Source of the DNA: a virus
Reading direction: 5' to 3' (one strand)
Length of the DNA: 46,060 nucleotides
UHGV virus genome: UHGV-1373565
Shown: in pieces, positions 1 through 46,060 of the stretch
How positions within the stretch are numbered: the stretch's first letter is position 1
Layout of the letters: each line of letters opens with the position of its first letter
Program-made: the position numbers and the translations under genes
The notes under the pieces: model-generated
The model's input: the letters and a program-made list of their open reading frames with translations, nothing else
Told to the model about the DNA's origin: nothing
The model's database searches: none

Positions 1-90
1 AGTAAGCTATAGTAAGCTATAGTAAGCTATAGTAAGCTATAGTAAGCTATAGTAAGCTATAGTAAGCTATAGTAAGCTATAGTAAGCCCT
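1..90. repeat. Tandem 10-bp repeat AGTAAGCTAT, 8 perfect copies plus one degenerate copy (agtaagccct). The same 10-mer array is at 45988-46060, so the two are contiguous if the sequence is circular or terminally redundant.
   Basis: Direct reading of the sequence; identical unit at both window edges. Confidence 0.95.
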
Positions 91-146
91 GTAAGTTTCT
101 CCTTATTCTCTCTTTATAGAGAGAATATAATATAGTAAGCCTTATT

Positions 147-187
147 AGCCCTCTTGAGTGTAGTAGCTCAGGAGGGCTTTATTTTGT
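147..187 (+). terminator. Hairpin (agccctcttgag / ctcaggagggct, loop tgtagtag) followed by ttattttg; candidate rho-independent terminator.
   Basis: 11/12-bp inverted repeat followed by a T-rich tract. Confidence 0.45.
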
Positions 188-202
188 CTAGTACACTAGA
201 CT
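186..202. repeat. Palindrome A (gtctagtacactagact), one member of a dispersed CTAGTAC palindrome family.
   Basis: Near-perfect 16-18 bp palindrome; recurs at 3019-3040, 7544-7561, 35113-35138, 39366-39382 and 45848-45865. Confidence 0.6.
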
Positions 203-247: not shown

Positions 248-400
248 ATGCAAACTAGTATTAAGCCAGAGAAGATGAAATCTAAGAAACTACGTAAGCT
301 GAATGAGAAGGAGCAAGAGGAGCTTGCAATCCGTCAGCAGCATAAGGGCAAGCACCATAAGACCCAGCGTGGCAAGCGCCCTGAGTGGGAGGCTTACTAA
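248..400 (+). CDS. Hypothetical small basic protein (50 aa).
   Basis: ATG preceded by ggag; K/R-rich; below the ORF-track length threshold, translated by hand. Confidence 0.35.
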   Translation: MQTSIKPEKMKSKKLRKLNEKEQEELAIRQQHKGKHHKTQRGKRPEWEAY

Positions 401-543
401 TGAGGTACGTTATTAAGCAGCAACCTGATGGTCTTTGGTATGTAAAGGATGAGTATCGTAATAAGGTACTAGTATGTGATGCAAGCAGGGAATACTGTGA
501 AGGCTTCTTAGCAGGTGTTGCAGCTGTTGGAGGTGATTGCTAA
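400..543 (+). CDS. Hypothetical protein (47 aa).
   Basis: TAATG overlap with the upstream ORF and with the primase start, consistent with translational coupling. Confidence 0.3.
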   Translation: MRYVIKQQPDGLWYVKDEYRNKVLVCDASREYCEGFLAGVAAVGGDC

Positions 544-2555
544 TGGCTATTGTTATGAACCTACCTTGCCCTGCCTGCCAGAAGAATGGCGCAGACAAGA
601 ATGGTAAGTACCTTATGGTGTTTGAGGATGGCGGTAAGCTCTGCATACATACTCACAACCACGATAACCGTGAGCGCTACTATGAGCCACCAGATGGCAA
701 AGACCCTGTGTTTGACCGTGAGATTGATGGCAAGGTTCAGTATTCTCCTGAGCAATTCCGCAAGCTGGAATCAGATGGCAAGCTGAGTGATTCTTTTACC
801 CGTCATCTTGCTATGTCAGGCATGAGGATGAAAGACCGCTATGAGATTCTCACTGATGATGAGCGCACAGCTCTGGAGAATGAGTGGCGCATGGACATGG
901 AGTGGTTTGAAGGGCTTTCCTTTAAGTCACTAGCTGACCGTGGCATACATGGGCTAATCGCCAAGCTTTATAATGTGCGAGTAGGTCATGATGAATCTGG
1001 TAAAGTTGTCCGTCACTACTACCCAACTTATGACAGCCAGCTAAACCTGATTGGCGCTAAGTGTCGAACGTTGCCTAAGGAATTTATGTTCGGGCATCTT
1101 GGTCGTCGCTTTGGTGACACTGCACTGTTTGGTATCCACACCCAGCAAGCTGTACTTGATAGCGGTACTTTCAAGAAAGGTAAGATGGGTAAGCTGCTGG
1201 TAGTTGGCGGTGAGTGTGATGCTATGGCAGCTCAGCAGATGCTGGTTAAGAGTCTCAATAAGCTTGAGCAGTTCAATGGCCTGAAGTCACTTGATGGTCT
1301 GCGCCTAGCTCATGTGTGGTCGCCAACTAAAGGGGAGACAGCGCTAGAGGAGATTGTAGCTAACCGTGAATACCTCAATCAGTTTGAGGAGATTGTATGG
1401 GGCTTTGATAACGACGATGTAGGCAACAAGCTTAACCTAGACTGCTCCCGCTTGTTCAGGCAGAAGTCTAAGTTCTTTAACTACCCAGCTGGATGCAAGG
1501 ATGCTAATGATTGCTTGCTTAAAGGCAGGGAGAAGGAATTCATGGATTCGTGGTGGCAACCAGCAGAGGCTAGAGTTAAGGGCAAGCTGAGGGAAGCTGG
1601 TCACTACGCTAAGCGAGCTAAGCAAGCTGTAGAGATGGGCTTGTCATACTTCTGTGAAGCTCTCAACATGATTACCTTTGGTATTCGCCTGCGTTACTTG
1701 TCTGTGTGGGGTGCTGGTACTGGTGTAGGTAAGACAGAGATTACTACTCAGCATATCACCAGCCTAATCAAGCAAGGTAAGCCAGTGGTAGCTATCTACC
1801 TTGAGAACAGTCCAGAAGAAGTCCTCAAGATGGTGGCAAGCCAGATGGCTAACAAGGACTTTATGAGTCCACCGCTAGGTGAGGGTGATGAGTACGATGC
1901 ATCTAGGGATTACACTCAAGAGGAATTAGACGCTACAATCGATGAACTAGTAGCAACTGGCTTGCTTATCATACCAGACCTTGAAGGTAGTAAGGACGTC
2001 AACGTAATCATGGAAGTCCTAGAAGATGCATTAGCATTAGGCTACCAGTATTATGTTATCGACAACCTGACAGCCTTTGAGCACTACGTAGACGGTAAGG
2101 TTCAGGTTGGTGTCGCTGCTATTGATGAGACAATGAAGCGCATTGGTACATTTAAGGATGAGCATGACGTCAACATTATGCTGCTCACTCACTTAAGTAG
2201 ACCAGAGAAAGGCCGTGACCCCCACGAGCTTGGTGGTGAAGTCTATATCACTGACTTACGTGGTGCAGGCTCTATCAGCTTTTGGGCTAATGGTGTATGG
2301 GGCATCGAGCGTAACACTCAGGCTGAGGCTATTAGCGACAAGTGTACTACACTGCTGCGTAACCTTAAGTCTCGTGGCGTTGGTCACAAGGTTGGCTCAA
2401 CAGTTGTGCTCCGCAAGGACATTACTACTGGTGAGTTTGAGTACCTTGAAGGTGTTCATGAGCTGCCGCAGGTTGGCAGGAAGAAGAAGGAGAGTAAGCG
2501 CGATGCGCAAGCTCAACGGTTTATTGAAGATGCAGAAACTGACGGAGAGTTCTGA
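543..2555 (+). CDS. DNA primase/helicase (T7 gp4-like).
   Basis: N-terminal Cys4 zinc-binding element (CPACQ...CIHTHNH); Walker A GAGTGVGKT of a DnaB-family helicase; acidic C-terminus ending in Phe (DGEF). Confidence 0.9.
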   Translation: MAIVMNLPCPACQKNGADKNGKYLMVFEDGGKLCIHTHNHDNRERYYEPPDGKDPVFDREIDGKVQYSPEQFRKLESDGKLSDSFTRHLAMSGMRMKDRYEILTDDERTALENEWRMDMEWFEGLSFKSLADRGIHGLIAKLYNVRVGHDESGKVVRHYYPTYDSQLNLIGAKCRTLPKEFMFGHLGRRFGDTALFGIHTQQAVLDSGTFKKGKMGKLLVVGGECDAMAAQQMLVKSLNKLEQFNGLKSLDGLRLAHVWSPTKGETALEEIVANREYLNQFEEIVWGFDNDDVGNKLNLDCSRLFRQKSKFFNYPAGCKDANDCLLKGREKEFMDSWWQPAEARVKGKLREAGHYAKRAKQAVEMGLSYFCEALNMITFGIRLRYLSVWGAGTGVGKTEITTQHITSLIKQGKPVVAIYLENSPEEVLKMVASQMANKDFMSPPLGEGDEYDASRDYTQEELDATIDELVATGLLIIPDLEGSKDVNVIMEVLEDALALGYQYYVIDNLTAFEHYVDGKVQVGVAAIDETMKRIGTFKDEHDVNIMLLTHLSRPEKGRDPHELGGEVYITDLRGAGSISFWANGVWGIERNTQAEAISDKCTTLLRNLKSRGVGHKVGSTVVLRKDITTGEFEYLEGVHELPQVGRKKKESKRDAQAQRFIEDAETDGEF

Positions 2556-3516: not shown

Positions 3517-5360
3517 ATGGAACACTTTCCGTCAATGTTTGCCAATAAAGCTGACCGCCCCTCTGGTAAGGGGCGCTTTCTTGTTGGTGACTTAGAGGGT
3601 GTGGGGCTTGTCAGGGCTATTCGTAAGCCGTCTGACATTCACGTCATCACCCTGCAAGATTACTTTAGTGGTGACTACTGGATTTTCTTCGACCCTATTG
3701 AGAAGCGAATCAACCCTAGTGAGCTGCAAATGGAAGGGGAGCAGGATGGCTACATTGAGGATGGTGTTCGTATGCTCATGGAGTCAGAGGCTTTCTGCTT
3801 CCAGAACGGCGTAGGCTTTGACTTGCATGTGTTTGAGAAATGCTTCCCGTGGTTCAAGTATAACTATTGTGAGTCACGAGCAGCTCGCCCACATGCTGAC
3901 ATCTTCCCGTTTAAGTTTATGGATACCATGCTGGTTAGCCAGCTGACCTATCCAGACCGCCCACTGCCACCACAAGCTTACGCCATTGGCGCAGGTAATA
4001 CGGGTCCACATAGTATTGCAGCTCATGGTATCCGCATGGGTCGCTATAAGCCTGACCATGAGGACTGGTCTACTCTTACTGATGCAATGATTCACCGTAA
4101 CGTGGAAGACGTTGCTATCGGTACTGATATGCTTAAGTGGCTCATGGAGGGTGATTGGGCTGAGCAGAAAGCTCGTGGTCTGAACAAGACTACTGGCTGT
4201 GGTATTGATACAGCTTATCAGATGGAGCAGCAAGTAGCGCTCATGATTAGCCGTCAGGAGCAGCGAGGCTTCCGCTTCGATATGGCACAGGCCTACAAAG
4301 ACTTCTGTACCATTGACAAGGAGATGGAAGACACAGCAGCTGCTGTTGACCCACTCATACCGCTCAGGCTGGTCACTAAGCCTTACAAGTTTGCTGACCT
4401 TAAGTCAAGGTATGATGCAGCTGTCAAGGCTGGGTTCACTGAGGCAGAGCTTAAGCCTATCTTCAATGGCATCAATCAGACCATGAAAGCTATGGGTGAT
4501 GAAGCTCGCATGGGTGACAAGGCTACTATGTGGTCTTTGACAACCAAGAACGGTGACTACAGCAAGCGTTTGCAAGGTTACTTCCCTGAGATGCGTGGCA
4601 ACATAAATGACACGCATGACCCTCTTGTAGCTGGTGCATTCACTCCAATTAGCTTTGAGCATATTGGCTTGGGTAATCTTGACTACATTAAAGAGAAGGT
4701 GCTGTATCCACTTGGCTGGCGTGGTGTTAACTTGTCGGACTCTGAGCAAGAGTGGTATGACGAGCATGGAACAACACGTTATCCGTGGTCTGGTAAGATT
4801 GATGACGACTCGCTTGAGCTATGGAAGAAGAAACAGGAAGTACCAGAGTGGGCGCAGCAGGTTGTTAACTACTACATCCTACGCTCGCGCCGCTCAGTTA
4901 TCCTGAACCGTGGCGACCTTGACCACTTCCTTGAGAAAGGTCAGTGGCCTAAGCAGAAGAATGGGCGTCATGAGTGCCGTGGCTTGCTGGCAGTAGCTTA
5001 CTGCAAAGAGCATGACATGATGGCTATGGAATACTTTGCTAAGTTCCGTGAGTGGCCTACATCTGAGGATGAGGACTGGCGTGTACCAGCAGCAGCTTTC
5101 AGCATAGGAACCAATACCTTCCGTATGCGTCATCGCTTTGTGGTTAACATACCTGCTCGTGGGTTGTGGCCTCTGCGCCACCTGTTCATTGCATCTAAGG
5201 GTAAACTTATCTTAGGCTGTGATGGGGCTGGCCTTGAGCTGCGTATGCTTAGTCACTTCATGAATGACCCTGAGTATCAGGACATCATTCTCACTGGTGA
5301 CATCCATACACATAACCAGCTTAAGGCAGGCTTGCCTACTCGTGATATGGCTAAGACGTT
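3517..5360 (+). CDS. DNA polymerase (family A, T7 gp5-like), exon 1. Ends inside motif B (...LPTRDMAKTF).
   Basis: Motif A DGAGLELR; DIHTHNQ; motif B begins RDMAKTF as in T7 RDNAKTF. The frame then diverges and stops 10 codons later. Confidence 0.85.
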
Positions 5361-6034
5361 TAACACAATGGGCGTCTATAAACTCCTCTAATTCGGTGAA
5401 CATCTCCAAGAGACAATACCGAGCTAAGCAGGTGGTCATAGCAACTCAATAGGAGGTGCTTATGATTATGTCAAACTGTAATAAGACTAAGGCAGAGCAA
5501 ACTGCCGACCCTGGTAAATATCCACAAGGCTACTTTAAACCAAAGCCTTGTAAGTGTTGTAAGAAAGTATTCACGCCTAAGGCTCCATCAGAGCTGTATT
5601 GCTCTGATACCTGTAAAGATAAGGGTATAATGAATGCTTACTTGCAACGCAATTATGGTATCACCTTCCGCCAATACCGCCTCATGCTTGAAGACCAGAA
5701 AGGTTTATGCAAGATTTGTGGTAGTGAAGGTTTCATAATGAATAAGGATAGACACAAGATGAAGCTTGTAGTAGATCACTGCCACTCCACTGGTAAGGTC
5801 AGAGGCTTACTGTGTCATAACTGCAATAGGGCATTAGGTTTATTCCAAGATAGCCAAGATTCACTACTCAAAGCTATTGACTACCTGAAAGTGTAACGAC
5901 TAGCCGAAAGGCGTAGGGCTAAGCAGCCCGAAACGGGGAGGCTCGCAAGAGCAAGAGATAGTCTGCTCTGCATGGTGACATGCAGCAGTTCTATAAGAAC
6001 GGCCTAGGTCTAGCGAGCCTAGGTGAACATAAGG
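5361..6034 (+). mobile_element. Group I intron (about 674 nt) interrupting DNAP motif B and carrying an HNH homing-endonuclease ORF.
   Basis: The 5' exon ends in U (acgtt|) and the intron ends in G (aagg|), as group I splicing requires. Joining 5360 to 6035 restores KTF-IYAFLYGSG, matching T7 KTFIYGFLYGAG. The 3' part holds GNRA-capped hairpins (gcc-gaaa-ggc; ctgcatg-gtga-catgcag). Such introns are reported in T7-like DNAP genes. Confidence 0.6.
5462..5896 (+). CDS. Intron-encoded HNH endonuclease (Endonuclease VII / HNH family).
   Basis: CKICG...VVDHCHSTGKVRGLLCHNCNRALG motif; aggagg RBS 5 nt upstream of the ATG. Confidence 0.8.
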   Translation: MIMSNCNKTKAEQTADPGKYPQGYFKPKPCKCCKKVFTPKAPSELYCSDTCKDKGIMNAYLQRNYGITFRQYRLMLEDQKGLCKICGSEGFIMNKDRHKMKLVVDHCHSTGKVRGLLCHNCNRALGLFQDSQDSLLKAIDYLKV

Positions 6035-6731
6035 TATATACGCATTTTTATATGGCTCTGGCATTGATGGGCTAGCTCGCTTGGCTGGCATTAGCTTTAG
6101 TGAGATGGAACAGTGTATTGCTCGCTTCAAAGCTGAGCTACCTGCACTTGCTAAGCTCATTGAGCGTGTGGAAACTGCTGGTCGCAAGTTCGGATACCTA
6201 CAAGCTATTGATGGTCGCTGGGGCCGTATTCGCCGTAAGAATGGCAAGCCACTGTTGCACACTGCACTTAACGTATTGCTTCAGATGACTGGCTCTCTGG
6301 TTATGAAGTATGGTGAGTGCATCGCTGAGACTCAGATGATTGAGGAAGGGGTTGCATTAGATGATAAAGGCTATCCAGCTTTCGTGGCTAACGTACACGA
6401 TGAAGTACAGATGGAAGTCCCTGAAGATGAAGTTGATGTTATGGACTACACGTTGCCATATACACTTGATGGATTCGAGAATGAGAAGAAAGCTATCAAA
6501 GCGGTCTTTGATGTTGAGGAGAAGCGAGCACACACTGATGACAGTGGGCGTAAGTGGTCAGCAGCTATCAAGGTTTCTGCTGCTGATGGTACTATCCATT
6601 GTCGCAGGTACTATCATCGAGCTGGTAACATCCTTATGGATGCTTTCGAAGCTGCTGGTGTTAAGTTCAACATGAGATGCCCACTTGCTGGTGAATATAA
6701 GATAGGCCGTAACTGGCACGATACTCACTAG
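6035..6731 (+). CDS. DNA polymerase exon 2 (motif B remainder IYAFLYGSG through motif C VHDEVQ to C-terminal His).
   Basis: In-frame reading upstream of the track ORF 6081-6731 gives GIYAFLYGSGIDG...; HTALNVLLQMTGSL and VANVHDEVQMEV match T7 gp5 C-terminal motifs. Confidence 0.8.
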
Positions 6732-7544: not shown

Positions 7545-7565
7545 GTCTAGTACACTAGACTGAAG

Positions 7566-7587
7566 CCGTACTAGTTAGCTAGTACGG
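7566..7587 (+). terminator. Hairpin B (ccgtactag-ttag-ctagtacgg), 9-bp perfect stem, immediately after palindrome A at 7544-7561. Candidate terminator or RNase III site.
   Basis: Perfect inverted repeat; the same element recurs at 38932-38956, 45801-45822 and 45871-45892. Confidence 0.5.
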
Positions 7588-7609
7588 TATTAGGCACTAC
7601 AATAGGAAT
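7588..7609 (+). promoter_or_regulatory. Phage RNAP promoter (tattaggcactacaataggaata).
   Basis: Consensus match. Confidence 0.75.
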
Positions 7610-7689
7610 AGCTGAGTAGACTCAATTGGTAGAGCGGTACACCAGAAATGGCAGTATCAGTTGCTGGTTCAAGTCCAGCCTCAGCGACC
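7610..7689 (+). tRNA. tRNA-like element with canonical D-loop and T-arm; the anticodon arm cannot be resolved.
   Basis: AGCTCA-like D-arm (ACTCAATTGGTAGAGC); perfect T-arm GCTGG-TTCAAGT-CCAGC; 6/7 acceptor pairs (GCTGAG/CTCAGC) then ACC. The 27 nt between the D- and T-arms do not fold into a standard 5-bp/7-nt anticodon stem-loop. Confidence 0.4.
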
Positions 7690-31158: not shown

Positions 31159-31181
31159 TATTAGGCACTACAATAGGAGAA
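31159..31181 (+). promoter_or_regulatory. Phage RNAP promoter (tattaggcactacaataggagaagc) upstream of the tailspike gene.
   Basis: Perfect consensus; its leader contains 1.5 copies of the AGTAAGCTAT unit. Confidence 0.8.
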
Positions 31182-31291
31182 GCTATAAGAAGAACAGTAA
31201 GTATACAGTAGCTATAGTAAGCTATTGTTAGCCCTAGTAGCTACTGTACTTCTTCCTTATTATTTCTTATATCTTATTATAGAGGAGCTAT

Positions 31292-34200
31292 ATGACTACA
31301 TATAAGCTTAAGCAAGTTAAAACATCAGAGAGCTTTGTAGGGCTTTCTGATACCCCAGCAACCCTTGCTGGTGGTGGTGGTAAAATCCTTAAGGTTAACT
31401 CATCTGGTACAGGCATTGTACTAGCTGATGAGAGTAAGTTAGCTCTCTATGAGGATGGTGTATTCCAGCCACCTGTTGATGGAATTAACGTAGTTGGTAT
31501 TAGTGTAGATAAAGAGGAGAATGGCATCGCTACACTTAGCGGTGTAGGCCTTCCACTAGCTAACTTACAGGTTGGTGAAGTGATTGCAATTGACCCTGTC
31601 TCCAAGAGAGCTAAGGGTACTGGCATTGTATCTAACGAGAAAGGTGTCTCTGTTGGTGCTGATGGTGTTATTGTAGGCCAACATCGTATCAGCTCAATTG
31701 GTGAGGCTGTAGGTGTAACTAACGTAGCTACTGGTGGAACTACTGTTTCAATTGGTATGCCCCTATCTAGCACTGGTCAGGCTAAGCCAACTTACATCAG
31801 CTTTACCTCAGCACTTACTGAGGTTGTTCGAAATGCTGATGTCACTAACACTATCAAAGACCCTGAGTGGTATGTAGGTCAGCCACAGCTTGATGAAGTC
31901 CTGTTTGGAATCACAATCAAGGATGTTGTATACCCTCAGTCTAACGTTTACTTATATGGCTTTGGGGATGGCAAGGAGCTGTTTAAGGTTCTCCTTGGTG
32001 ACTTTGTTGCAGGTACTAATACCTTTGTACTAAGTACACCTGTTGTTATTAAGAATGTTAACTCTATCCAAGTTGCCCTGCTATCTGATTATGGTTCTGT
32101 TTATGTTAAGGGTAATTCTAGTGGAGTACCAGCTTACTCAGCTAAGCTCCGCACCTTTGAATACAAGCAGCTCATATCTGAATTAGGTATCAAGCAAACT
32201 GTAGGTGGAACTCCAATAAGTGCAAATAACTTGGTGTTCCCTTCTGCTTCTGTGTTTGTTGATAATGTAAGTGGTGATGTAGTAGTTGATACCAGCTTTG
32301 GCGTTGACGATGAAACTACGTCCATCCAAGGTGTTGGTAGCCTTAAGTTTAAAGGTGCTACCGTTAAGTCCACAACATCTTCTAATGGAGAGGTTACGGC
32401 TGAGGTTACAATACCACCACCAGAAGGTATCACTATCAACAGTGAAGGTTCTACTTTAACTAATGTTGGTGAGATTAACTTACTGCCACCACTTAAAGTG
32501 TCTAATGACAACACTGGCTCTGCTCGTATTGCCATTGATCATAATGCCTACCAGCAAATGCTACCGCCATCTCATCTGGCTTATTTGACAGAAGAAGTTA
32601 GCTTAGTTGGAAAGATTGGCGACCAGCGTAATCTTCACACTGGAGCAATCTGGTTTGATGACATCATTACACAGAGTGGTGACATCTACACAAGTCGTGA
32701 TGAGAAGGTTTACGGCATCCAAGAGGTTGATGGTCTTGACCCAAACATCACAGGTGGTAATGACTTCCTTATAGCTTACAAGCTTTGTTTTGATGGTGTT
32801 GCACCAGCTGATGGCATTGTACGTATTGCACTTGCTGACCCCACCACAGGCGACTACTTGGTTGATGCCAATGGGTTTGCAATGGTTGCACAGCGTCAGT
32901 ATGTAGCTGGTGAAGTCCTTGGTGAGCTACTTGTAGTTGGTGTTGTTAGGGCAACTGCCATCACACCATTCAAGTGTCTGTGCCTTGATAACTTCCAAGC
33001 TAACCTGTTGACTATCAAAGACCGCGGTGAATCTACATCTGGCCTTATGATTCAGTGTATGCTGACTAATGGTAAGACTGGTGAGGCTATCAAGCAGTTT
33101 GAGCTTGATACAGGTTCAAATATAGCTGTTGATAGCCACTACTTTGGTAACATCATTGACAGCCTTGCATATGTATCAAGTCAGAGTATGCCAGCAACAA
33201 CAATACCTGCACTGACAGGTATCAGAGAGGGTGACGGCTGGTTCTTAAACAACACAACTAGTGTCACACTGTCATCTGGTAGTGGTCTATTTAAGGTATC
33301 TAGCAGTGGTCAGAATACTGCATACTTCTCATTAGGTAAGATTTTCAATGCTGATAAAACTCAGCTTCTTCGAAACAAGGAGCTGTCAGTAATCAGCACC
33401 TTAGGGACACCTGATTGTGGGTTCTTGATTAAACTTGCGTATTGGACAGGTGCTCCTGATGAGTGCCCAAGTAATATCTTTACAGGGTCCCTTAATGATA
33501 ATCCCGTTCTGGCGCAAGGTTGGAACCTGCTAAGTGACAGTATCCCTTGCCCGGAGGATGTTGTTAATGAGTACAACACACTTACTGGAAGTTTTGTTGT
33601 ACCACCAACAGCTAATAACTTTGCAATCCTCATCTATCCAGTGTCTCAGCAAAATCCTCTTAATCTTACTATTAGCAAGTTTGAGATTGGTGCTGTTGAC
33701 CCATTCACTGGTTACTATGTTAAAGACAGCAAGCTTGTTAGTGAGCAGCATCTTTATAAGGACATAAACTACAACCAGTTGTATATGAACTCAGAGGGCT
33801 ACTCTGCACTTCGATATACCATTAACAGCACACCTGTTACTGGTCTACCTATGCCAGTTGGTCATGTTGGTAAAGGCTCAGCTGGTGTTACTATTGATAG
33901 GTCTATTAACCATGTTAGTGGTTTTAATGGTGAAGGTGCTATCAAGTTTAATACTGATGGCAATGTGACAATCAGCACACAGCTGCGTGTTTATGCAGGT
34001 GAATCTGTTCCAGCTGGAACTATGTCTTCAGTAACCTTCTGGTATTCTACTGTAAGCTCAACTGGTGTATTCACTAAGATAGCTGACTCAGAGACTACCT
34101 TCAATGTTACTGGTGGTGACAAGGTTCCCTTGTCAATCCTCATGAAGAAGTTTAAGCTGAGTGTTAAGGCAGGGGATAGAATTGCTTTGTTTGCTAAAGC

Positions 34201-36318: not shown

Positions 36319-38265
36319 ATGGCTTTAACAAGGCTTACATCACCTACTCGCTCATTTGATACAATACAGCAAGCCATTTCTTATGGCCCTAAATTTAGAG
36401 TTGGTGACAGGATCTTTATATATGGTGAGGAAGGTGTATCTTTCGATTATAAGGTTGGGTCTTATTTAGTAGATAATGGAACAGTATTTCAGGCAGGCTC
36501 AGGTTATCTAGTAAGATCATTTGAAGGTGCTGCTAGATCTTCTTGGTTCTCATCATGGTCAGGTCTGGTTACTTACATGTCATTACCGGGAAGATCTCTT
36601 ATTGTGGACAATGAAGTTAAGGCAACATCTGTTATGTACTTAAAATCTTTATCATCCCTTAAGTTCACACCATCAGGTGTTATTGTACCAAATGACACAC
36701 CCTCTCAAGTTATTAATATCTTAGGTACAGAGCCAACAGCTTTCTCAAGTCTTGCTGGGGATATGAAGGCAAGCAGTGCGCTTGTAACATTCAGTGATAG
36801 CGTTGGTATTGTAGCAGGTGATAACGTAGTAATTAAATCTGACAGACCTTGTGACGGTGGCCCTAACTCTTATGGCGTAAGAGCCTCAGTCCTAAGGACG
36901 GTTCTGGCAACAACTTCATCTGGCGGTATTACAACTGCACTATTAGACCAGACAGTGCACTATACATTCCTTGTTTCAGAGAATGCTGTTATTGGCAAAT
37001 ATTACCCAGTTAGTGATGTTGAGCTTGTTGATGTTAAGATAAATAAACAAGCTAATGTAACTACACTATTTACACTTGGTATATCAATGCAGTATTGCAA
37101 CAATATCAAGATCAAGGGTGGTGTACTTCAAGGTAGTAAGCCAGCTGGCACAGGTGATATAACAGGTAGATCAGCTATCAAGTTTAATAACTGCCGTAAC
37201 TCTTTTGTTGATGGAACTCATTTCTACTCTATTGGTTGGTACGGGGTAGAGGTACTTGGGGCTTCAGAGGATATACAGGTTAATAGGATTAAGGCGTGGG
37301 ATGTACGACACGCTATTAGTCTTAACTGGCAGACTACAACAGATGGCCCTAAGTGGGGTGAGCCTATCACATTTAAGGCGAAGGACTGCATTGCTTATAA
37401 CACTGTTCAATCCGGGTTTGATACACATGATATTGGTAAGCGTATCCAGTTTATCAACTGCATTTCATATGATGCTGGTGATGACGGGTTCCAAGCCAGA
37501 ACAAATGGTGTTGAATATATAGGATGTAAGGCATATAGACCTAAGCTAGATGGGTTTGCATCTAATACCGGTGTAGCTTTCCCTATTTATAGGGGATGTG
37601 TAGCATACAATGCACCACGAGCAGGCTTCAATACATCTTATGGCGGAGGTTATATATATGACTGTGAAGCACACTTCTGTGCAGAGGGTGTAAGGACTAA
37701 TGGTGGAATTGTAGAGGGTGGCAGATACACTAATATATCTAAGGCTGAAATCTTTATAACTAAAGATGTTTCAGGGACTCAGCAGCTTCCTCTTGTTATT
37801 AGAGATGTAGGTTTGAAGTATGATGGCAATGGGAGGGCTATATATTTCCATGGGACAATGGGAATTGACCCAACATTAGTGACTATTGAAGGCTGCGACA
37901 TGACAGGTCATGGATTGGCTTGGGCACTTTTGTCTGGATACTCAACACAGCCAACACCACCTAGAATGAGTAGGAATATACTAGATGATGTCAATGTTCG
38001 TGGCGTAGCTACTTTAGTAGCTGGTACTGCAACTGTAAATGCTAGGGTTCGTGGACAATTTAGTTCTAATGCTAACTCATTCAAGTGGGTATCTGAGATT
38101 AAACTTACAAGGCTTACATACCCAAGTACTGCTGGCCATATTTCTGTTACGGCAGTTACTCAAGATGCAAGTGTACCAACACCTAACCCAGACTTAAACT
38201 CTTTCACTATAAAGAGTTCTAATTCGGCAGATGTTTCACAAATTATGTGGGAGATATTCCTCTAA
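36319..38265 (+). CDS. Tailspike protein 2 with a right-handed beta-helix (pectate-lyase-like) depolymerase domain (648 aa).
   Basis: Periodic G/N/V-rich beta-helix repeats (NNIKIKGGVLQG...NCRNSFVDGTHF...); AT-richer codon usage than tailspike 1. Confidence 0.6.
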   Translation: MALTRLTSPTRSFDTIQQAISYGPKFRVGDRIFIYGEEGVSFDYKVGSYLVDNGTVFQAGSGYLVRSFEGAARSSWFSSWSGLVTYMSLPGRSLIVDNEVKATSVMYLKSLSSLKFTPSGVIVPNDTPSQVINILGTEPTAFSSLAGDMKASSALVTFSDSVGIVAGDNVVIKSDRPCDGGPNSYGVRASVLRTVLATTSSGGITTALLDQTVHYTFLVSENAVIGKYYPVSDVELVDVKINKQANVTTLFTLGISMQYCNNIKIKGGVLQGSKPAGTGDITGRSAIKFNNCRNSFVDGTHFYSIGWYGVEVLGASEDIQVNRIKAWDVRHAISLNWQTTTDGPKWGEPITFKAKDCIAYNTVQSGFDTHDIGKRIQFINCISYDAGDDGFQARTNGVEYIGCKAYRPKLDGFASNTGVAFPIYRGCVAYNAPRAGFNTSYGGGYIYDCEAHFCAEGVRTNGGIVEGGRYTNISKAEIFITKDVSGTQQLPLVIRDVGLKYDGNGRAIYFHGTMGIDPTLVTIEGCDMTGHGLAWALLSGYSTQPTPPRMSRNILDDVNVRGVATLVAGTATVNARVRGQFSSNANSFKWVSEIKLTRLTYPSTAGHISVTAVTQDASVPTPNPDLNSFTIKSSNSADVSQIMWEIFL

Positions 38266-38273
38266 AGGTAATT

Positions 38274-38429
38274 ATGCCACTTATCAAATCATTAAGTAAG
38301 AAAGCAGTTCAGCAGAACACAGCTGAGCTTATCGCAAGTGGTAGGCCAGCTGAACAAGCTTATGCTATTGCTAAAGATGTACAAAGAGATGCTAGGAAGC
38401 TTAAGAAGCCTTCTGGTGTTAAATCGTAA
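38274..38429 (+). CDS. Possible small basic protein (51 aa).
   Basis: ORF only; weak. Confidence 0.2.
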   Translation: MPLIKSLSKKAVQQNTAELIASGRPAEQAYAIAKDVQRDARKLKKPSGVKS

Positions 38430-39234
38430 CCAATTGGCAGCTTGCTAGGTAGTTAGAGTAAGCTGCTGTTAACTGGAGTAAGCTATGAGAATTAATGCAC
38501 ACAGTCTTTCATATCTACATCGTAAGTATAAGAGAGGGTATGTAGAAGGTTAAGTAAGCTAGCTAGGTAGCCATTAGTGGTTACTGTAAGCTGGCCTTGA
38601 AACTAAAATTAGGTTGGGCAGCTACAGCAGTTCCCGCCGCCGCCAGCTTCAGCTTTCCCCCCATCGGGGTGGCTGACTGGCACCTCTTAGGCCGCAGGCA
38701 GTTAGAGGGGGGGGTGGGTAGGCTGGCTCAGGCTGGCTAGGTAGCTGGCATCAGCTTGCATCAGTTAGCGTAAGTCATTGATGTTGCACTCGCTTGCTAG
38801 TACATGAGATCACTCTACGTGAAATCTGGCTAGCTTGCGTGGGCTATCAAGCTGCTAATTCAAGCTGGTGCATCAGCTGTACTCGTGTGCTAGTGCGCTG
38901 ACAGTGGCTGATTGGCAAGCTGCTAGGTGGCTTGTACTAGTCAGCTAGTACGTTGTGTGCTGCTGGGTGTATCTGTCTTTAGTCTTATGGGTTAACCAAC
39001 CACAGCTTGCAGTAACTCACTAGCAGCTTATTGGGTAGCTCATAGGTAGCTTACAAGGCTCAAAGCTTGCTGGTACTACTGATGGCTTACTAGGTAGCTT
39101 ACTATCACTGACTAGGTAGCTACTGTTAGTTCACTAGGTAGCTAGCTATGGCTGACTAGGTAGTTACTAGGTGGATTGATGTAAGCTTACTCAAGCTCTC
39201 TTAGTGCATCATTCGATGCACAATATAAGAAGAA

Positions 39235-39258
39235 TAAGACACTACAATAAGAATAGAG
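39235..39258 (+). promoter_or_regulatory. Weak phage-promoter-like site (taagacactacaataagaatagag), preceded by hairpin gtgcatc-attc-gatgcac.
   Basis: Core ACTACAATA conserved; flanks divergent. Confidence 0.4.
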
Positions 39259-39288
39259 TACGCCTTGCCAATAGCTCTCATCAGCTAC

Positions 39289-39318
39289 TTGCAACAGCCT
39301 ACTCAGCCTACGTATAAC
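39289..39318 (+). promoter_or_regulatory. Sigma70-type promoter (TTGCAA-N18-TATAAC).
   Basis: -35 and -10 hexamers with 18-bp spacing, upstream of the early genes. Confidence 0.5.
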
Positions 39319-39418
39319 CACTAGGTAGCTGCTTGTAGCTATGGTCGGCTGACTAGGTAGCTTTAGTCAGTCTAGTGCACTAGATTAAGCTAATGTGAGC
39401 TACATCACTAAAATGGTG

Positions 39419-39447
39419 TTGACTAGGTAGCTCACTGTAGGTATAGT
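39419..39447 (+). promoter_or_regulatory. Strong sigma70-type promoter (TTGACT-N17-TATAGT); its -35 is provided by an ACTAGGTAGCT repeat unit.
   Basis: Near-consensus hexamers with 17-bp spacing; about 370-nt untranslated leader before the first early ORF. Confidence 0.6.
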
Positions 39448-42410: not shown

Positions 42411-45044
42411 ATGTACACTAGCGATGAGCTTTACCAGAAACAACTTGAGCTAGAAGGGGAAATGCACGGCTATGGTGTTACTCGCTTTGACCGTAACAAC
42501 CAACGTGCAATTGATAGCGGTACACCTTCAGACACTGATTGGAACCGCCGTTTACTTTCTAACTTCATTGAGCCTATGGTGAAGGGTATCAATGCTTATA
42601 AGGAGTATTACAAGACTAAAGCTGGACGGCCTACGGTGGCTTTAAAGTACATTCGTCAGGTGCAGCCAGAGCAAGCAGCTTACATTGCCATTAAGAATAT
42701 CCTTGATGTGCTGGGGAGTACCACATTTGATGCTAACTGGCTTGTTACCACTATTGGGCGTCGTATAGAGGATCAAGTGAGATTCACTAAGCTTGAGGAG
42801 GCTGCCCCTAAGTATGTTGGCAAGGTTAAGGATAGCTTAGCTAAGCGTAATTCACTACAGTATGCACACCAGCATAAAGTGCTGGTAGCTACTGAGAAGA
42901 AACTAGCTGAGAATCCAGAACGTGCGCAGCTTGAGTTACCACGCTGGCAAGAATGGGCGGAGGAGGATTGCAAGCACGTTGGTAGCTTGCTGGTCAATAT
43001 CTTTGAGCAGTGCATTTTGTTTGAAGGTGAGCCAGTAATCCGTAAGGAGGTGCAGACAGTTCGCAAAGGTACATTGGTTTTCATCAAGCCCACTGAGAAA
43101 GTTACCAAGTGGATTCATGAGTTCAGAGAGGCTATTGGTGGGCTTGCTCCGGCTTATGCACCTTGCGTAGTTCCTCCACTTGATTGGACTTCCCCATTTA
43201 CTGGCGGGTTCCATACGGAAGCTGTTAGCAGCACTCTGCATCTTGCTAAGGTTCGCAATAAGCGCCACTTGCGTAAGCTGACTAAAGAGCAGATGCCAGC
43301 AGTTTATAAGGCTGTAAACAATTTGCAGAAAGTACGCTGGCGTATCTCTGAGCGTGTGCTTGCAACTGCTAACACGCTTGTAGAGCTGGGCTTGCCTTAT
43401 GCGCTCCCTTCTAAGGATGAAAGTGATTGGAAAGAGAAGAATCCATGCCCTGTGCCTGAGTATCTGCAAGACCTGCGAGGCGAGCAGCTAAAAGCGGCGC
43501 TTACTGCCAGTCAGTGGGAAGCGTTTCAGGAGTGGAAACAGTTGGCACGTCAGAACTACGACGAGGAGAGTGAGCGCGTAGCAAGCTTTAGGGAAGTTGT
43601 ACGTACCTTAGGGCAAGCTAACCGCTACGTTGGATTTGATGCAATCTACTTTGTGTACACGCTGGACTTTCGCGGACGTGTCTACTGCCAGAGTAGCCTT
43701 GTAAGCCCACAGGGTGGCGACTTGCAGAAAGCTCTCATCAAGTTTGCTGATGGAATGAAGCTGGGCGAGCGTGGTGAATACTGGTTTAAGGTGCATGGTG
43801 CTAACGAGTGGGGGTGGGATAAAAAGGAGTTTGACGAGCGCGTAGCCCTTGTAAGTGAGCCTGAATTCTGCGAGATGTGCCTAGACATTGCAAGTGACCC
43901 TGTGACCTTCAATGACTGGATTAAAGCTGATAAGCCGTGGCAGTTCCTCAACTGGTGCTTTGAGTATGCTGACTTTCTGAAGCATGTGCAATCAGGTGGC
44001 AACCCACAGGACTTTGTAAGCTACATCCCGTGTGCGATGGATGGTTCTTGCTCTGGTATTCAACATTATAGTGCCATGCTGCGTGATACAGTTGGTGGTG
44101 CTGCTGTTAACTTGGTTAACTCTGACAAGCCTAATGACATCTACGGGGAAGTCTGCAAGGTTGCTATTAAGGAGCTGCAAGCAATTGCTGATGGCTCACA
44201 GGTCTATGATGGCAAGATTGACCCTGTACTAGCTCAGCAGCTGGCGCAGGAGTGGCTGCGTCTGCAACCAAATCGCAGCCTAACTAAGAAGCCTGTTATG
44301 ACCCTGCCTTACGGCAGCACTCAGTTAACTTGCCGTGAGCATGTTAGCCAGTGGCTGAAAGATTTGCAGAAGGAGGAGAATAAGCGAGCTAAGGCAGAGT
44401 TTAGGGAGCCTATGAAGGTACACGCTTTTGGTGATGCTGATAGTGCAATGCCGCTAAAGTTTGCTGAGTCACTTATGACTAGCATTGTGTGGCACTCTAT
44501 CGGTAAGGTTGTAGTAGCTGCGAGGGCTGGTATGGCTTACATCAAAGCCGTCACAAGCTCAGTGGCTAAGATGAATATGCCGCTTGAGTGGACTACTCCA
44601 ACAGGCTTTATTGTCCGTCAGGAGATTTACCAGTTCACAACACGTCAGGTAAACACTCAGCTGCTGGGTGGTACTAAGTTTGTAGTCAGCACTAAGAGTA
44701 AGGATATTGATTATCATCGCATGATTAACTCTTGCGCACCTAACTTTGTTCACTCAATGGATGCGAGCCACCTTACACTGGCAACTAACTACTTTGCAGA
44801 TGCAGGTATTAGCAGCATTGCAGTAATCCATGATAGCTTTGGCACACATGCAGGAGCTACTGACCTGCTGCGTGAGCGTCTGCGAGCTTCAATGGTGGAT
44901 ATGTACGAACAGCATGATGTTATCACTAACTTCCTTGCTGAAACTGAGGGCAGACTTATGACAGCTTTTGAGCACATTCGTGTGCCAGAGCGTGGTGAGC
45001 TGCAACTTGATAGCATTAATCAAAGTACGTATGCTTTTGCTTAA
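42411..45044 (+). CDS. Single-subunit DNA-dependent RNA polymerase (T7 gp1-like), 877 aa.
   Basis: Length; conserved segments such as ...PCVVPP..., ...YGSTQ..., IHDSFGTHA (motif C) and the C-terminal ...AFA; nine cognate promoters are present in the window. Confidence 0.95.
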   Translation: MYTSDELYQKQLELEGEMHGYGVTRFDRNNQRAIDSGTPSDTDWNRRLLSNFIEPMVKGINAYKEYYKTKAGRPTVALKYIRQVQPEQAAYIAIKNILDVLGSTTFDANWLVTTIGRRIEDQVRFTKLEEAAPKYVGKVKDSLAKRNSLQYAHQHKVLVATEKKLAENPERAQLELPRWQEWAEEDCKHVGSLLVNIFEQCILFEGEPVIRKEVQTVRKGTLVFIKPTEKVTKWIHEFREAIGGLAPAYAPCVVPPLDWTSPFTGGFHTEAVSSTLHLAKVRNKRHLRKLTKEQMPAVYKAVNNLQKVRWRISERVLATANTLVELGLPYALPSKDESDWKEKNPCPVPEYLQDLRGEQLKAALTASQWEAFQEWKQLARQNYDEESERVASFREVVRTLGQANRYVGFDAIYFVYTLDFRGRVYCQSSLVSPQGGDLQKALIKFADGMKLGERGEYWFKVHGANEWGWDKKEFDERVALVSEPEFCEMCLDIASDPVTFNDWIKADKPWQFLNWCFEYADFLKHVQSGGNPQDFVSYIPCAMDGSCSGIQHYSAMLRDTVGGAAVNLVNSDKPNDIYGEVCKVAIKELQAIADGSQVYDGKIDPVLAQQLAQEWLRLQPNRSLTKKPVMTLPYGSTQLTCREHVSQWLKDLQKEENKRAKAEFREPMKVHAFGDADSAMPLKFAESLMTSIVWHSIGKVVVAARAGMAYIKAVTSSVAKMNMPLEWTTPTGFIVRQEIYQFTTRQVNTQLLGGTKFVVSTKSKDIDYHRMINSCAPNFVHSMDASHLTLATNYFADAGISSIAVIHDSFGTHAGATDLLRERLRASMVDMYEQHDVITNFLAETEGRLMTAFEHIRVPERGELQLDSINQSTYAFA

Positions 45045-45053
45045 GGAGACACT

Positions 45054-45533
45054 ATGGAGCAGGTAGAAAATTATGAAGGGTATTATGTTGATAAGAGTGG
45101 CTGCGTATATAGCCAATGGAAGGGTAATGGTAGGCGAGGTGGCAGGTCTTTAGGGATGTCCCTTAAGAAACTGAAACAGCAGATTCAGAATGGGTATAAG
45201 TATGTAACCTTAGTTAATGATAAGGGAAGAAGGACAATACCTGTTCATAGGATAGTGGCAACTGCCTACCTGCCATTAGAGGCTGGAAAGGGAGAAGTGA
45301 ACCATAAGGATAAGGATAGACTTAACAACCATTGTGATAATTTAGAATGGTGTGATAGGCAATATAATGTGGAACACTCACAGGCACTAACTTATGAGTT
45401 CACATCTCCAGAGGGAGTTAAGGTTACAGTGTTCAACCTCAATAAATTTTGTAAGGCTAATAGCTTAAATACTGGATGTATGTGTGAGGTTCACAGTGGT
45501 AAACGAAATCAACATAAGGGTTGGAAGAAATGA
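45054..45533 (+). CDS. Free-standing HNH endonuclease (HNH_3 family), paralogous to the 8165 gene.
   Basis: EVNHKDKDRLNNHCDNLEW motif; AT-rich composition; aggag RBS. Confidence 0.8.
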   Translation: MEQVENYEGYYVDKSGCVYSQWKGNGRRGGRSLGMSLKKLKQQIQNGYKYVTLVNDKGRRTIPVHRIVATAYLPLEAGKGEVNHKDKDRLNNHCDNLEWCDRQYNVEHSQALTYEFTSPEGVKVTVFNLNKFCKANSLNTGCMCEVHSGKRNQHKGWKK

Positions 45534-45752: not shown

Positions 45753-45786
45753 AGGCAGCTACTTAGGTGGCTGCCTTTTCTTTTAT
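45753..45786 (+). terminator. Rho-independent terminator (aggcagctac-ttag-gtggctgcct + tttcttttat). Analogue of the T7 early terminator TE.
   Basis: 9/10-bp stem followed by a T-tract. Confidence 0.75.
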
Positions 45787-45800
45787 CTGGCTTGTACTAG

Positions 45801-45892
45801 TTATCTAGTACAAATTTACTTGATAATAATTATCATTAACTCAGTCTAGTATACTAGACTAGACCGAGTCGTACTAGTTGGCTAGTACAACA
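45801..45892. repeat. Cluster of three CTAGTAC elements. Hairpin B (45801-45822, ttgtactag-ttat-ctagtacaa); perfect 18-bp palindrome A (45848-45865, agtctagtatactagact); hairpin B (45871-45892).
   Basis: Direct reading; same composite A+B arrangement as at 7544-7587. Confidence 0.65.
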
Positions 45893-45961: not shown

Positions 45962-45984
45962 TAATTAGGCGCTACAATAGGGAG
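45962..45984 (+). promoter_or_regulatory. Phage RNAP promoter (taattaggcgctacaatagggag) reading directly into the 10-mer tandem array.
   Basis: Consensus match; T7-like GGGAG initiation region. Confidence 0.75.
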
Positions 45985-45987
45985 CCC

Positions 45988-46060
45988 AGTAAGCTATAAT
46001 AGTAAGCTATAGTAAGCTATAGTAAGCTATAGTAAGCTATAGTAAGCTATAGTAAGCTAT
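45988..46060. repeat. Tandem AGTAAGCTAT array (7 copies, with a 3-nt aat insertion after the first), reaching the window edge.
   Basis: Direct reading; identical unit to 1-90. Confidence 0.95.

Follow-up and report, generated by a model that had tools for sequence, protein, structure and literature searches.

Closest Described Elements

The primary replication origin of phage T7 follows the RNA polymerase gene directly and precedes the DNA-metabolism genes; it has two tandem phage promoters, separated by the hairpin R1.1, and an A+T-rich non-coding stretch. On the T7 map, gene 1 ends at 5822, followed by phi1.1A at 5848, phi1.1B at 5923 and the start of gene 1.1 at 6007, with R1.1 located between phi1.1A and phi1.1B, and the early terminator does not adjoin the polymerase gene but comes after gene 1.3. 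The phage promoter is essential to this origin, its transcript priming the DNA polymerase before the helicase-primase is recruited, and other T7 promoters act as secondary origins (PMC8373140; bioRxiv 10.1101/2024.07.25.605042). The primary origin is itself dispensable, any promoter with an A+T-rich region being able to serve (PMC8373140). Consequently, position alone is weak evidence for an origin, because T7 can do without the primary site and other promoters suffice.

Regarding SP6-like phages, we know of no replication origin that has been mapped. SP6, K1-5, K1E and Proteus phages (Molineuxvirinae) share a module composed of an early terminator, a palindrome, a first phage promoter (P1), a purine-rich array with a period of about 10 nt, a pyrimidine-rich arm, the palindrome repeated and a second promoter (P2), with a small gene and then primase/helicase behind it; no published function of this module was found in the literature searched. 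Likewise, neither the array described below nor the conserved periodic module is described in the searchable literature on Gajwadongvirus, SP6/K1-5 and the T7 origin, older SP6/K1-5 work being outside that scope.

The DNA analysed here, called the window, is the whole 46,060-nucleotide stretch of the virus genome UHGV-1373565, whose first and last bases both fall within a tandem array of a 10-nt unit. The overall explanation, to which we give somewhat better than an even chance, is that a permuted record was opened in a slippage-grown repeat, inside a conserved non-coding unit that would act as a candidate origin.

Genome and Architecture of the Module

The window is a complete, circularly permuted genome of a Gajwadongvirus-like Klebsiella phage, of the T7/SP6-like kind and belonging to the SP6 supergroup of the Autographiviridae. 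Its nearest record is Klebsiella phage Roth32, with 99.2% identity, followed by vB_Kp_Z1, RCIP0053 and RCIP0089, while PP99, ECBP5, MR4, JSF38 and Edwardsiella phages are farther relatives. As seen by Pfam assignments, the annotation of relatives and the T7 map, the array sits between the polymerase block and the replication genes (Table 1). This agrees with the first-pass annotation, which had compared the site with phi1.1A/phi1.1B of T7, after the RNA polymerase gene and an early terminator and before the replication genes. The same annotation had joined the two window ends into one module, and indeed both form one unbroken internal stretch in Roth32, RCIP0089, RCIP0053, Z1, PP99, ECBP5, MR4 and JSF38, as well as in two IMG/VR contigs and one metagenome contig.

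Table 1. Features of the window bearing on the array, listed in the order obtained when the window end is joined to its start.
Feature	Position	Strand	Sequence or structure	Remark
Paralogous promoter and degenerate AGTA(A)GCTAT leader	31161-31291	+		Precedes the tailspike gene (ATG at 31292)
Last gene	38247-38429			
Single-subunit RNA polymerase gene	42411-45044			Pfam
HNH endonuclease gene	45054-45533			Pfam
Early intrinsic terminator, host-type	45753-45784	+	Stem AGGCAGCTAC-TTAG-GTGGCTGCCT, then TTTTCTTTT	
Palindrome A1	45794-45811		GTACTAGTTATCTAGTAC, CTAG-N4-CTAG	Perfect; mean of 0.1 in shuffles
A+T-rich palindrome	45821-45835		TGATAATAATTATCA	Direct reading
Palindrome B1	45844-45859		GTCTAGTATACTAGAC	Recurs at 186-201
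Palindrome A2	45871-45888		GTACTAGTTGGCTAGTAC	Conserved in relatives
Phage-RNAP promoter P1 (predicted), core	45965-45980	+	TTAGGCGCTACAATAG	
Array, window-end part	45988-46060	+	AGTAAGCTAT (45988-45997), AAT spacer, AGTAAGCTAT x6 perfect (46001-46060)	
Array, window-start part	1-88	+	AGTAAGCTAT x8 perfect (1-80), partial AGTAAGCC (81-88)	
Hairpin HP2	106-125	+	TTCTCTCT-TTAT-AGAGAGAA	
Phage-type terminator	147-186	+	13-bp stem, then TTATTTTG	Ends the P1 unit
Palindrome B2	186-201		GTCTAGTACACTAGAC	Perfect; directly upstream of P2
Phage-RNAP promoter P2	209-224	+	TTAGGCACTCCAATAG	Drives ORFs 248-400 and 385-543 and primase/helicase
Small ORFs, 50 aa and 52 aa	248-400 and 385-543			Ahead of primase/helicase
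Primase/helicase gene	537-2555			Pfam
Family-A DNA polymerase fragment	from 3517			Pfam

About eight good phage promoters are found in the window, with the consensus taTTAGGCACTACAATAGgagaagc. P1 departs from it at one core position, matching the consensus of the seven other promoters at 15/16 and the capsid promoter at 21/22. It had been placed at 45962 as a consensus promoter, and a near-consensus core is indeed present; this core starts at 45965, position 45962 being part of the A+T-rich upstream flank. The core is preceded by an AATAA flank and followed by GGAGCCC before the first unit, and alignment with the SP6 promoter puts the probable +1 at the G at 45980, the last G of CAATAG. The hairpin, palindrome and second promoter that had been noted downstream are all present, the promoter, P2, being near-consensus (15/16), with an initially transcribed sequence that differs from that of P1.

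The early terminator directly follows a block formed by the RNA polymerase, HNH and a 73-aa ORF and is conserved in all relatives. Among the palindromes that follow, A1 is similar to the trp operator of E. coli, matching the verified trpO segment ahead of trpL at 16/18 positions, and the arms of the A+T-rich palindrome change together in ECBP5/MR4 (TGAGA..TCTCA). The copies B1 and B2 bracket the P1 unit, and a further identical copy of GTCTAGTACACTAGAC is located at 7545-7560, upstream of the promoter at 7590.

As seen by an in-house scan of the window, the + strand has only four strong intrinsic terminators, two of which flank the module, the others being at ~8146 and, after the capsid gene, at ~18117. 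The two flanking ones were confirmed by a terminator tool on the Roth32 copy, and the one downstream of the array is nearly invariant across Gajwadongvirus. A sigma-70 promoter scan of the module found none. Therefore, since a dedicated terminator ends the P1 unit, P1 drives an RNA of 150-290 nt that encodes nothing, and transcription is restarted by P2; P1, the array, HP2 and the terminator form a dedicated non-coding unit of 150-290 nt.

The Array and Its Copy Number

A promoter followed by a 10-mer tandem array at the window junction, as first described, was found by direct reading, with which Tandem Repeats Finder agrees, giving 100% unit identity. The edges had been counted as nine versus seven copies, about 16 in total; they are in fact unequal, with exactly seven units at the window end and eight plus a partial one at the start, which gives 15 perfect copies and one partial if the window ends abut. 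Since the last 60 bases of the window are identical to the first 60, the record might carry an assembler overlap, and thus the true unit count could be as low as nine. Allowing up to one mismatch, AGTAAGCTAT has 32 matches in the window, compared to 6.6 +/- 2.8 in shuffles. The unit is quasi-palindromic, centred on CTATAG with 8/10 positions pairing, and for this reason slipped structures are favoured.

The number of perfect units varies widely among close relatives, with 3 in Z1, 6 in UViG_3300045988_017271 and in an ERZ791615 contig, 10 in RCIP0089, 11 in Roth32, 15 in the window with its ends joined and 19 in RCIP0053. The search of IMG/VR and metagenomes for relatives returned only four contigs, three of them viral and one metagenomic, and no copy-number distribution can be built from so few. 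Meanwhile, PP99, ECBP5, MR4, JSF38, UViG_028890, DT115P1, VL73, Nufs112 and Klebsiella phage 6939 bear five to seven diverged units at the array position, one example reading AGCAAGCTA AGTAAGTTA AGTAAGCTAT AGTAAGCTAAC TAAAGCTT AGTAAGCTC, and AGTAAGCTATAGTAAGCT, the seed of the expansion, is already present in ECBP5 and JSF38. Thus, the array is a MINISATELLITE grown from an older degenerate array, that is, a recently expanded and fast-evolving minisatellite that arose by slippage from one older unit, and not a fixed set of iterons. K1E has one 10-nt unit more than K1-5, showing that small-scale slippage recurs at this locus.

As in minisatellites and other VNTR loci, the units are perfect, head-to-tail and non-coding, their copy number is polymorphic among near-identical genomes, and the locus disrupts short-read assemblies; unlike minisatellites in anonymous DNA, this array is embedded in a conserved, transcribed regulatory unit. 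Such variation shows that the perfect array is not tightly constrained, and no reading considered below requires a particular number of perfect 10-mers for function. The perfect expansion is incidental, an ordinary VNTR that broke an assembly, and the conserved part is the degenerate 10-nt periodic array with its promoter-hairpin architecture. Copy number in short-read assemblies is therefore unreliable at the array, which can also be used as a fast-evolving typing marker for therapeutic Klebsiella phages.

Other classes of repeat were also considered. A protein-coding array is ruled out, as by direct reading a stop codon (TAG or TAA) is found in every frame of both strands, and a CRISPR array was rejected. 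The type III antitoxin ToxI and the phage pseudo-ToxI expansions have a comparable layout of promoter, tandem repeat and terminator, with expansion in phage lineages. Their unit is of ~36 nt (~34-45 nt across such arrays), compared to 10 nt here, and the array cannot adopt a ToxI-type fold. In such systems the terminator is followed by an endoribonuclease toxin gene; downstream here there are the 50-aa and 52-aa ORFs and the primase/helicase, with no toxin gene or cognate system identified, and a ToxI-like repeat RNA was thus rejected.

Conservation Across the SP6 Supergroup

A terminator, a palindrome, P1, a periodic array, a pyrimidine arm, a palindrome and P2 follow one another in this order in SP6, K1-5, K1E, BP12B, SE29, pKP-M186-2.1, Proteus phage Pm5460, Aeromonas phage Aer_P220 and Klebsiella phage 6939, the last two belonging to other genera, and the SP6 module aligns to 115 phage records. 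In all these modules, the stretch after P1 is purine-rich and is followed by a complementary pyrimidine-rich arm. Autocorrelation peaks at a lag of 9 or 10 in 13/13 SP6-supergroup phages (z 2.4-5.9), with lineage-specific units (AGTAAGCTAn, TAGGTAAnnA or AAAGGnnnn); the T7 phi1.1B leader/origin region has no 10-nt periodicity by the same analysis. Judging from this distribution, the module is much older than the perfect array. SP6, K1-5, K1E and the Proteus phages have TAGGTAAnnA or AAAGGnnnn where the window has AGTAAGCTAT, and, unlike in the window, their modules lack both a terminator ahead of P2 and a large perfect expansion. In SP6-like phages, the stretch is therefore simply a 5' UTR, because no terminator follows the array. 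A CsrA sponge and a Shine-Dalgarno mimic, ideas drawn from the SP6-type AGG repeats, were dropped, as the Gajwadongvirus unit lacks GGA.

A second copy of the leader precedes the tailspike gene. After the promoter at 31161 come AAGCTATAAGAAGAACAGTAAGTATACAGTAGCTATAGTAAGCTATTGTTAGCCCT, a pyrimidine tract and then TATAGAGGAGCTATATG, and a 26-mer of this leader matches the 3' end of the array at 24/26 positions. The alignment shows homology between the tailspike leader and the P1 units, which makes P1 and its leader one copy of a promoter-leader cassette. In addition, the alignment pairs the 3' arm of HP2 with ribosome-binding sites, namely those of the tailspike gene, VL73 gp6 and the HNH gene of Nufs112. 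Gajwadongvirus, 6939, Aer_P220 and SP6-like phages have no ORF attached to the post-polymerase copy; VL73 and Nufs112 have a gene immediately behind their P1 leader. From these alignments, this promoter-leader type is evidently not specific to the post-polymerase position, which counts against an origin function, as do the 5' UTR nature of the SP6-like stretch and the missing periodicity in T7.

A Candidate Replication Origin

A primary replication origin working in the T7 manner would be the single most likely function of the P1 unit, a tentative assignment to which we give a little less than an even chance. The phage RNA polymerase would start at P1 and open the least stable duplex of the genome, and the P1 transcript would prime the phage DNA polymerase, with the displaced, hairpin-prone strand serving as a loading site for the primase/helicase. 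The terminator would separate P1 transcription from gene expression, and the array would be tolerated, or perhaps mildly favoured, by lengthening the A+T-rich, self-complementary stretch.

The likeness to T7 lies in the location, immediately downstream of the RNA polymerase gene and before the genes for DNA metabolism, in a pair of tandem phage promoters that flank a hairpin, and in the A+T-rich non-coding stretch. As in a T7-type origin, the predicted P1 is directly followed by easily melted A+T-rich DNA. The unit has 70% A+T, compared to 54.5% in the genome. At 100-250 bp, no duplex in the genome is less stable than the module, with -1.09 to -1.14 against -1.35 +/- 0.05-0.06 kcal/mol/bp. The module is also the most A+T-rich 200-bp window, a measure that the array expansion inflates and in which the tailspike leader is a close second. 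Besides these similarities, there are differences: the two regions share no sequence similarity, T7 lacks both the 10-nt periodic array and the terminator that the window module has between its two promoters, and the bracketing palindromes are additional here. Moreover, origin activity has been demonstrated for T7, the unit in the window being a candidate.

GC skew and cumulative skew give no origin signal, being monotonic because all genes lie on one strand. The primase recognizes the trinucleotide GTC in T7 and GCA in SP6, neither of which occurs on either strand of the array; the specificity of the primase of this phage may differ. As for the iterated 10-mers, they had been proposed as the functional element itself, an origin or a helicase loading zone, and this part is weakened by copy numbers of 3-19 among near-identical genomes, by sister species that carry only degenerate units and by the paralogous promoter-repeat leader in the tailspike 5' UTR. 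Still as a candidate origin, P1, the periodic array and the bracketing palindromes offer a concrete site for SP6-like phages, conserved across genera.

A Possible Role Confined to the RNA

The main and serious rival to the origin is a role as RNA leader, where the element functions purely as RNA, be it a structured leader or a stable short non-coding RNA, and takes no part in starting DNA synthesis. It could be a stabilizing or processing leader, for instance an RNase III substrate like T7 R1.1, or a decoy RNA. We consider this rather unlikely. The P1 RNA is predicted to form three hairpins, namely a 5'-terminal array hairpin, HP2 and the terminator, the last being a dedicated signal that defines the RNA 3' end. 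The array RNA is predicted as a rod in which 8-bp helices alternate with 2x2 A.A loops; at -73 kcal/mol over 150 nt, it ranks among the best 5% of arrays made from shuffled units. This low energy follows partly from the quasi-palindromic unit, which reduces its weight for an RNA function. The P1 transcripts of eight relatives also fold well (z -2.7 to -7.6), with a 5' GGGAG closed by CUCCC, as do SP6-like transcripts (z -2.8 to -5.1). Moreover, homologues of the leader include a genuine 5' UTR, in front of the tailspike gene, besides the VL73 gp6 leader and that of the Nufs112 HNH gene, and a leader also fits the SP6-like phages that have no terminator after the array.

Against a function limited to the RNA, Rfam 15 gives no family at the gathering threshold in the whole window, with only sub-threshold chance matches in the Roth32 copy of the module. 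Covariation is thin, as the 10 distinct HP2/terminator sequences are almost invariant, with one compensatory pair in HP2 (TCCCTCT/AGAGGGA). In addition, the period of 9-10 nt is predicted by the DNA helical repeat or by a history of slippage and is required by no RNA function.

Other Possible Readings: Binding Sites, a Relic and a Wider Element

Going beyond the T7 comparison, the P1 unit, as a non-coding unit read by the phage polymerase, might be an undescribed element common to the SP6 supergroup, where the periodic array itself, retained in every lineage while its unit sequence turns over, is an initiation site or a platform on which an oligomeric protein is loaded. Lineage-specific palindromes, which change in concert, bracket the unit, and in this genus the near-perfect flanking sites resembling the trp operator would couple the firing of an origin or promoter to a host regulator. 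This wider proposal is quite unlikely in our judgement, and two narrower ones were also considered.

In the first, the array is a set of iteron-like protein-binding sites, whose 10-bp units would put the motif on one helix face and allow cooperative coating by a phage or host protein in an origin or regulatory complex. The periodicity of 9-10 nt held throughout the supergroup despite lineage-specific units is consistent with it, as is a module rich in other conserved operator-like palindromes. Nevertheless, iteron-type origins have spaced repeats of ~17-22 bp in fairly stable number with a cognate initiator gene nearby; here the 10-mers are contiguous, without spacers, their number ranges over 3-19 among near-identical phages, the flanking ORFs contain no initiator or Rep-like gene as seen by Pfam and PHROGs, and the same motif is found in a gene leader elsewhere. 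Such binding sites are thus improbable.

In the second, equally improbable, the unit is a functionless relic, a promoter-leader cassette orphaned by the loss of its ORF, with an array produced by neutral slippage. In its favour, HP2 aligns with the ribosome-binding region in those paralogous leaders to which a gene is still attached, and copy number drifts freely. A relic is difficult to reconcile with an orphan arrangement that SP6, K1-5, Proteus phages, Gajwadongvirus and Aer_P220 all conserve, and with a stretch of terminator, palindrome and P2 that hardly varies between species with 80-97% identity in coding DNA.

Ends of the Record

Regarding the break inside the array, the first-pass annotation had taken it for a circular permutation or an assembly break and not for terminal repeats, and the relatives support that view. 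The ends of the PP99 record map to window positions 38749 and 38777, ~7.3 kb before the array. In Pantoea phage Nufs112, terminal repeats of 410 bp were verified by experiment (PMC9915841) and are annotated in the record, and the counterpart of the array is found ~9.3 kb into the genome. Meanwhile, the cut in the Roth32 record falls at window position 31226, immediately behind the 16-mer AGCTATAGTAAGCTAT, within the second, paralogous repeat region and hence at a different AGTAAGCTAT-containing site from that of the window. Two 99%-identical genomes broken at different sites bearing this unit indicate assembly at repeats and not physical ends.

Thus, because relatives carry the module unbroken inside the genome, between the RNA polymerase and primase/helicase genes, the break in the window is an assembly or permutation artefact and not a genome end. 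That the array represents the true physical ends, as terminal repeats of the packaged genome, is scarcely credible, since its sole evidence, the same repeat at both record ends, is opposed by an array internal and contiguous in eight relatives, by the PP99 ends at ~38750-38777, by the verified Nufs112 repeats located elsewhere, by the other repeat-bearing cut of Roth32 and by a gene order that puts the junction between the last gene and the early region. The array accordingly does not correspond to the direct terminal repeat of a T7-like genome, which is placed between the last late gene and the early promoters; by comparison with PP99, the ends of the genome in the window would be near 38.75 kb. 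The array also explains why records of this phage group open at arbitrary places.

In T7, the replication promoters phiOL and phiOR, secondary origins that have no gene to express, are located near the genome ends. The P1 unit is similar to them in having a consensus-type phage promoter whose transcript encodes nothing; unlike them, it is internal and closed by a dedicated terminator. A weak promoter-like site at 39235 may be a counterpart of phiOL.

Palindrome families around the P1 unit

The P1 unit, comprising the phage-RNAP promoter P1 with its downstream 10-mer array, hairpin HP2 and terminator once the record ends are joined, is flanked on both sides by copies of GTCTAGT-N2-ACTAGAC. Copies of this palindrome are found immediately 5' of P2, the promoter ahead of the primase/helicase gene, and of P7590, the promoter at 7590. 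When VL73, 6939, SP6 and K1-5 were compared, both bracketing palindromes were found to be altered in concert in other genera. Because the two change together, a lineage-specific binding factor is suggested, or else copies that would pair with each other.

Palindromes of a separate family, GTACTAG-N4-CTAGTAC, are far more common in the window than expected by chance (shuffle mean 0.1), and all CTAG-N4-CTAG sites taken together number 11, against 0.6 expected. The GTACTAG-N4-CTAGTAC palindromes are identical at 16 of 18 positions to GAACTAGTTAACTAGTAC, a segment of the trp operator of E. coli. A check of 5426 E. coli genomes confirmed this segment ahead of trpL in 5422. The palindromes might be sites for the host TrpR or for a phage protein of similar specificity; a literature search found no publications on TrpR-type binding of these phage palindromes.

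The A+T-rich palindrome TGATAATAATTATCA is similar to the Fur box sequence GATAATGATAATCATTATC, matching it at 16 of 19 positions. Its equivalents in ECBP5, MR4 and JSF38 carry compensatory changes in the arms (TGAGA...TCTCA).

Features of the window and bracketing palindromes of compared phages
Feature	Source	Position or sequence	Remark
GTCTAGT-N2-ACTAGAC	window	186-201, 7545-7560, 45844-45859	perfect
GTCTAGT-N2-ACTAGAC	window	3021, 35118, 39370, 41829	1 mismatch
Bracketing palindromes	VL73 (L010)	GTCTCCTGTAAGAGAC / GTCTACTGTAAGAGAC	
Bracketing palindromes	6939 (L017)	TGTCTCCTATAAGAGACA	x2
Bracketing palindromes	SP6 (L028)	TCCAACGTGTTGGA	x2
Bracketing palindromes	K1-5 (L030)	GTCTCACATGTGAGAC	x2
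GTACTAG-N4-CTAGTAC	window	7568-7585, 38934-38951, 45794-45811, 45871-45888	perfect
GTACTAG-N4-CTAGTAC	window	38786, 38879	2 mismatches
A+T-rich palindrome TGATAATAATTATCA	window	45821-45835	
22-bp tandem repeat	window	39089-39169	within non-coding 38445-39432
Weak promoter-like site TAAGACACTACAATAA	window	39235-39250	3 mismatches
tRNA-like sequence	window	7610-7687 (+)	directly downstream of promoter at 7590
HNH endonuclease ORF	window	45054-45533	between RNA polymerase gene and 73-aa ORF

Genome ends and record ends

Comparison with PP99 places the expected site of the physical genome ends in the non-coding region 38445-39432, where 13 of the 21 window matches to the motif CTAGGTAGCT are concentrated, all on the plus strand. 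A G+C-rich stretch (38620-38740) adjoins this cluster, which may be part of a terminal-repeat or packaging region. The weak promoter-like site is kept in PP99 and lies approximately 480 bp from where the left end is inferred to be; it could be a counterpart of T7 phiOL.

In the GenBank record of Roth32 (PQ657801.1), the closest relative, both ends fall within the tailspike leader's paralogous AGTAAGCTAT repeat, at a site corresponding to window position 31226; records of this phage group are arbitrarily permuted at repeat sites. In a genus other than that of the window phage, the array equivalent differs by one 10-nt unit, with two copies of CTAGGAATAC in K1E (L035, 280-300) versus one in K1-5 (L030, 235-250).

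tRNA-like sequence and ORF differences

Searched alone, the tRNA-like region matched the Rfam tRNA model with 34.6 bits (E 8e-6, gathering score 29), having 13 nt where the anticodon-loop region of the model has 9. It was not picked up when the whole window was searched against Rfam, and ARAGORN called no tRNA there. The sequence may represent a phage tRNA that is unusual or has decayed, or else a decoy.

At the position of the HNH endonuclease ORF, the Roth32 annotation (L001) has only a 58-aa ORF. The primase/helicase is a single 672-aa ORF in the window versus two annotated pieces in Roth32, and the window's DNA polymerase region (3517-6731) is broken into several ORFs, of 624, 146 and 216 aa.
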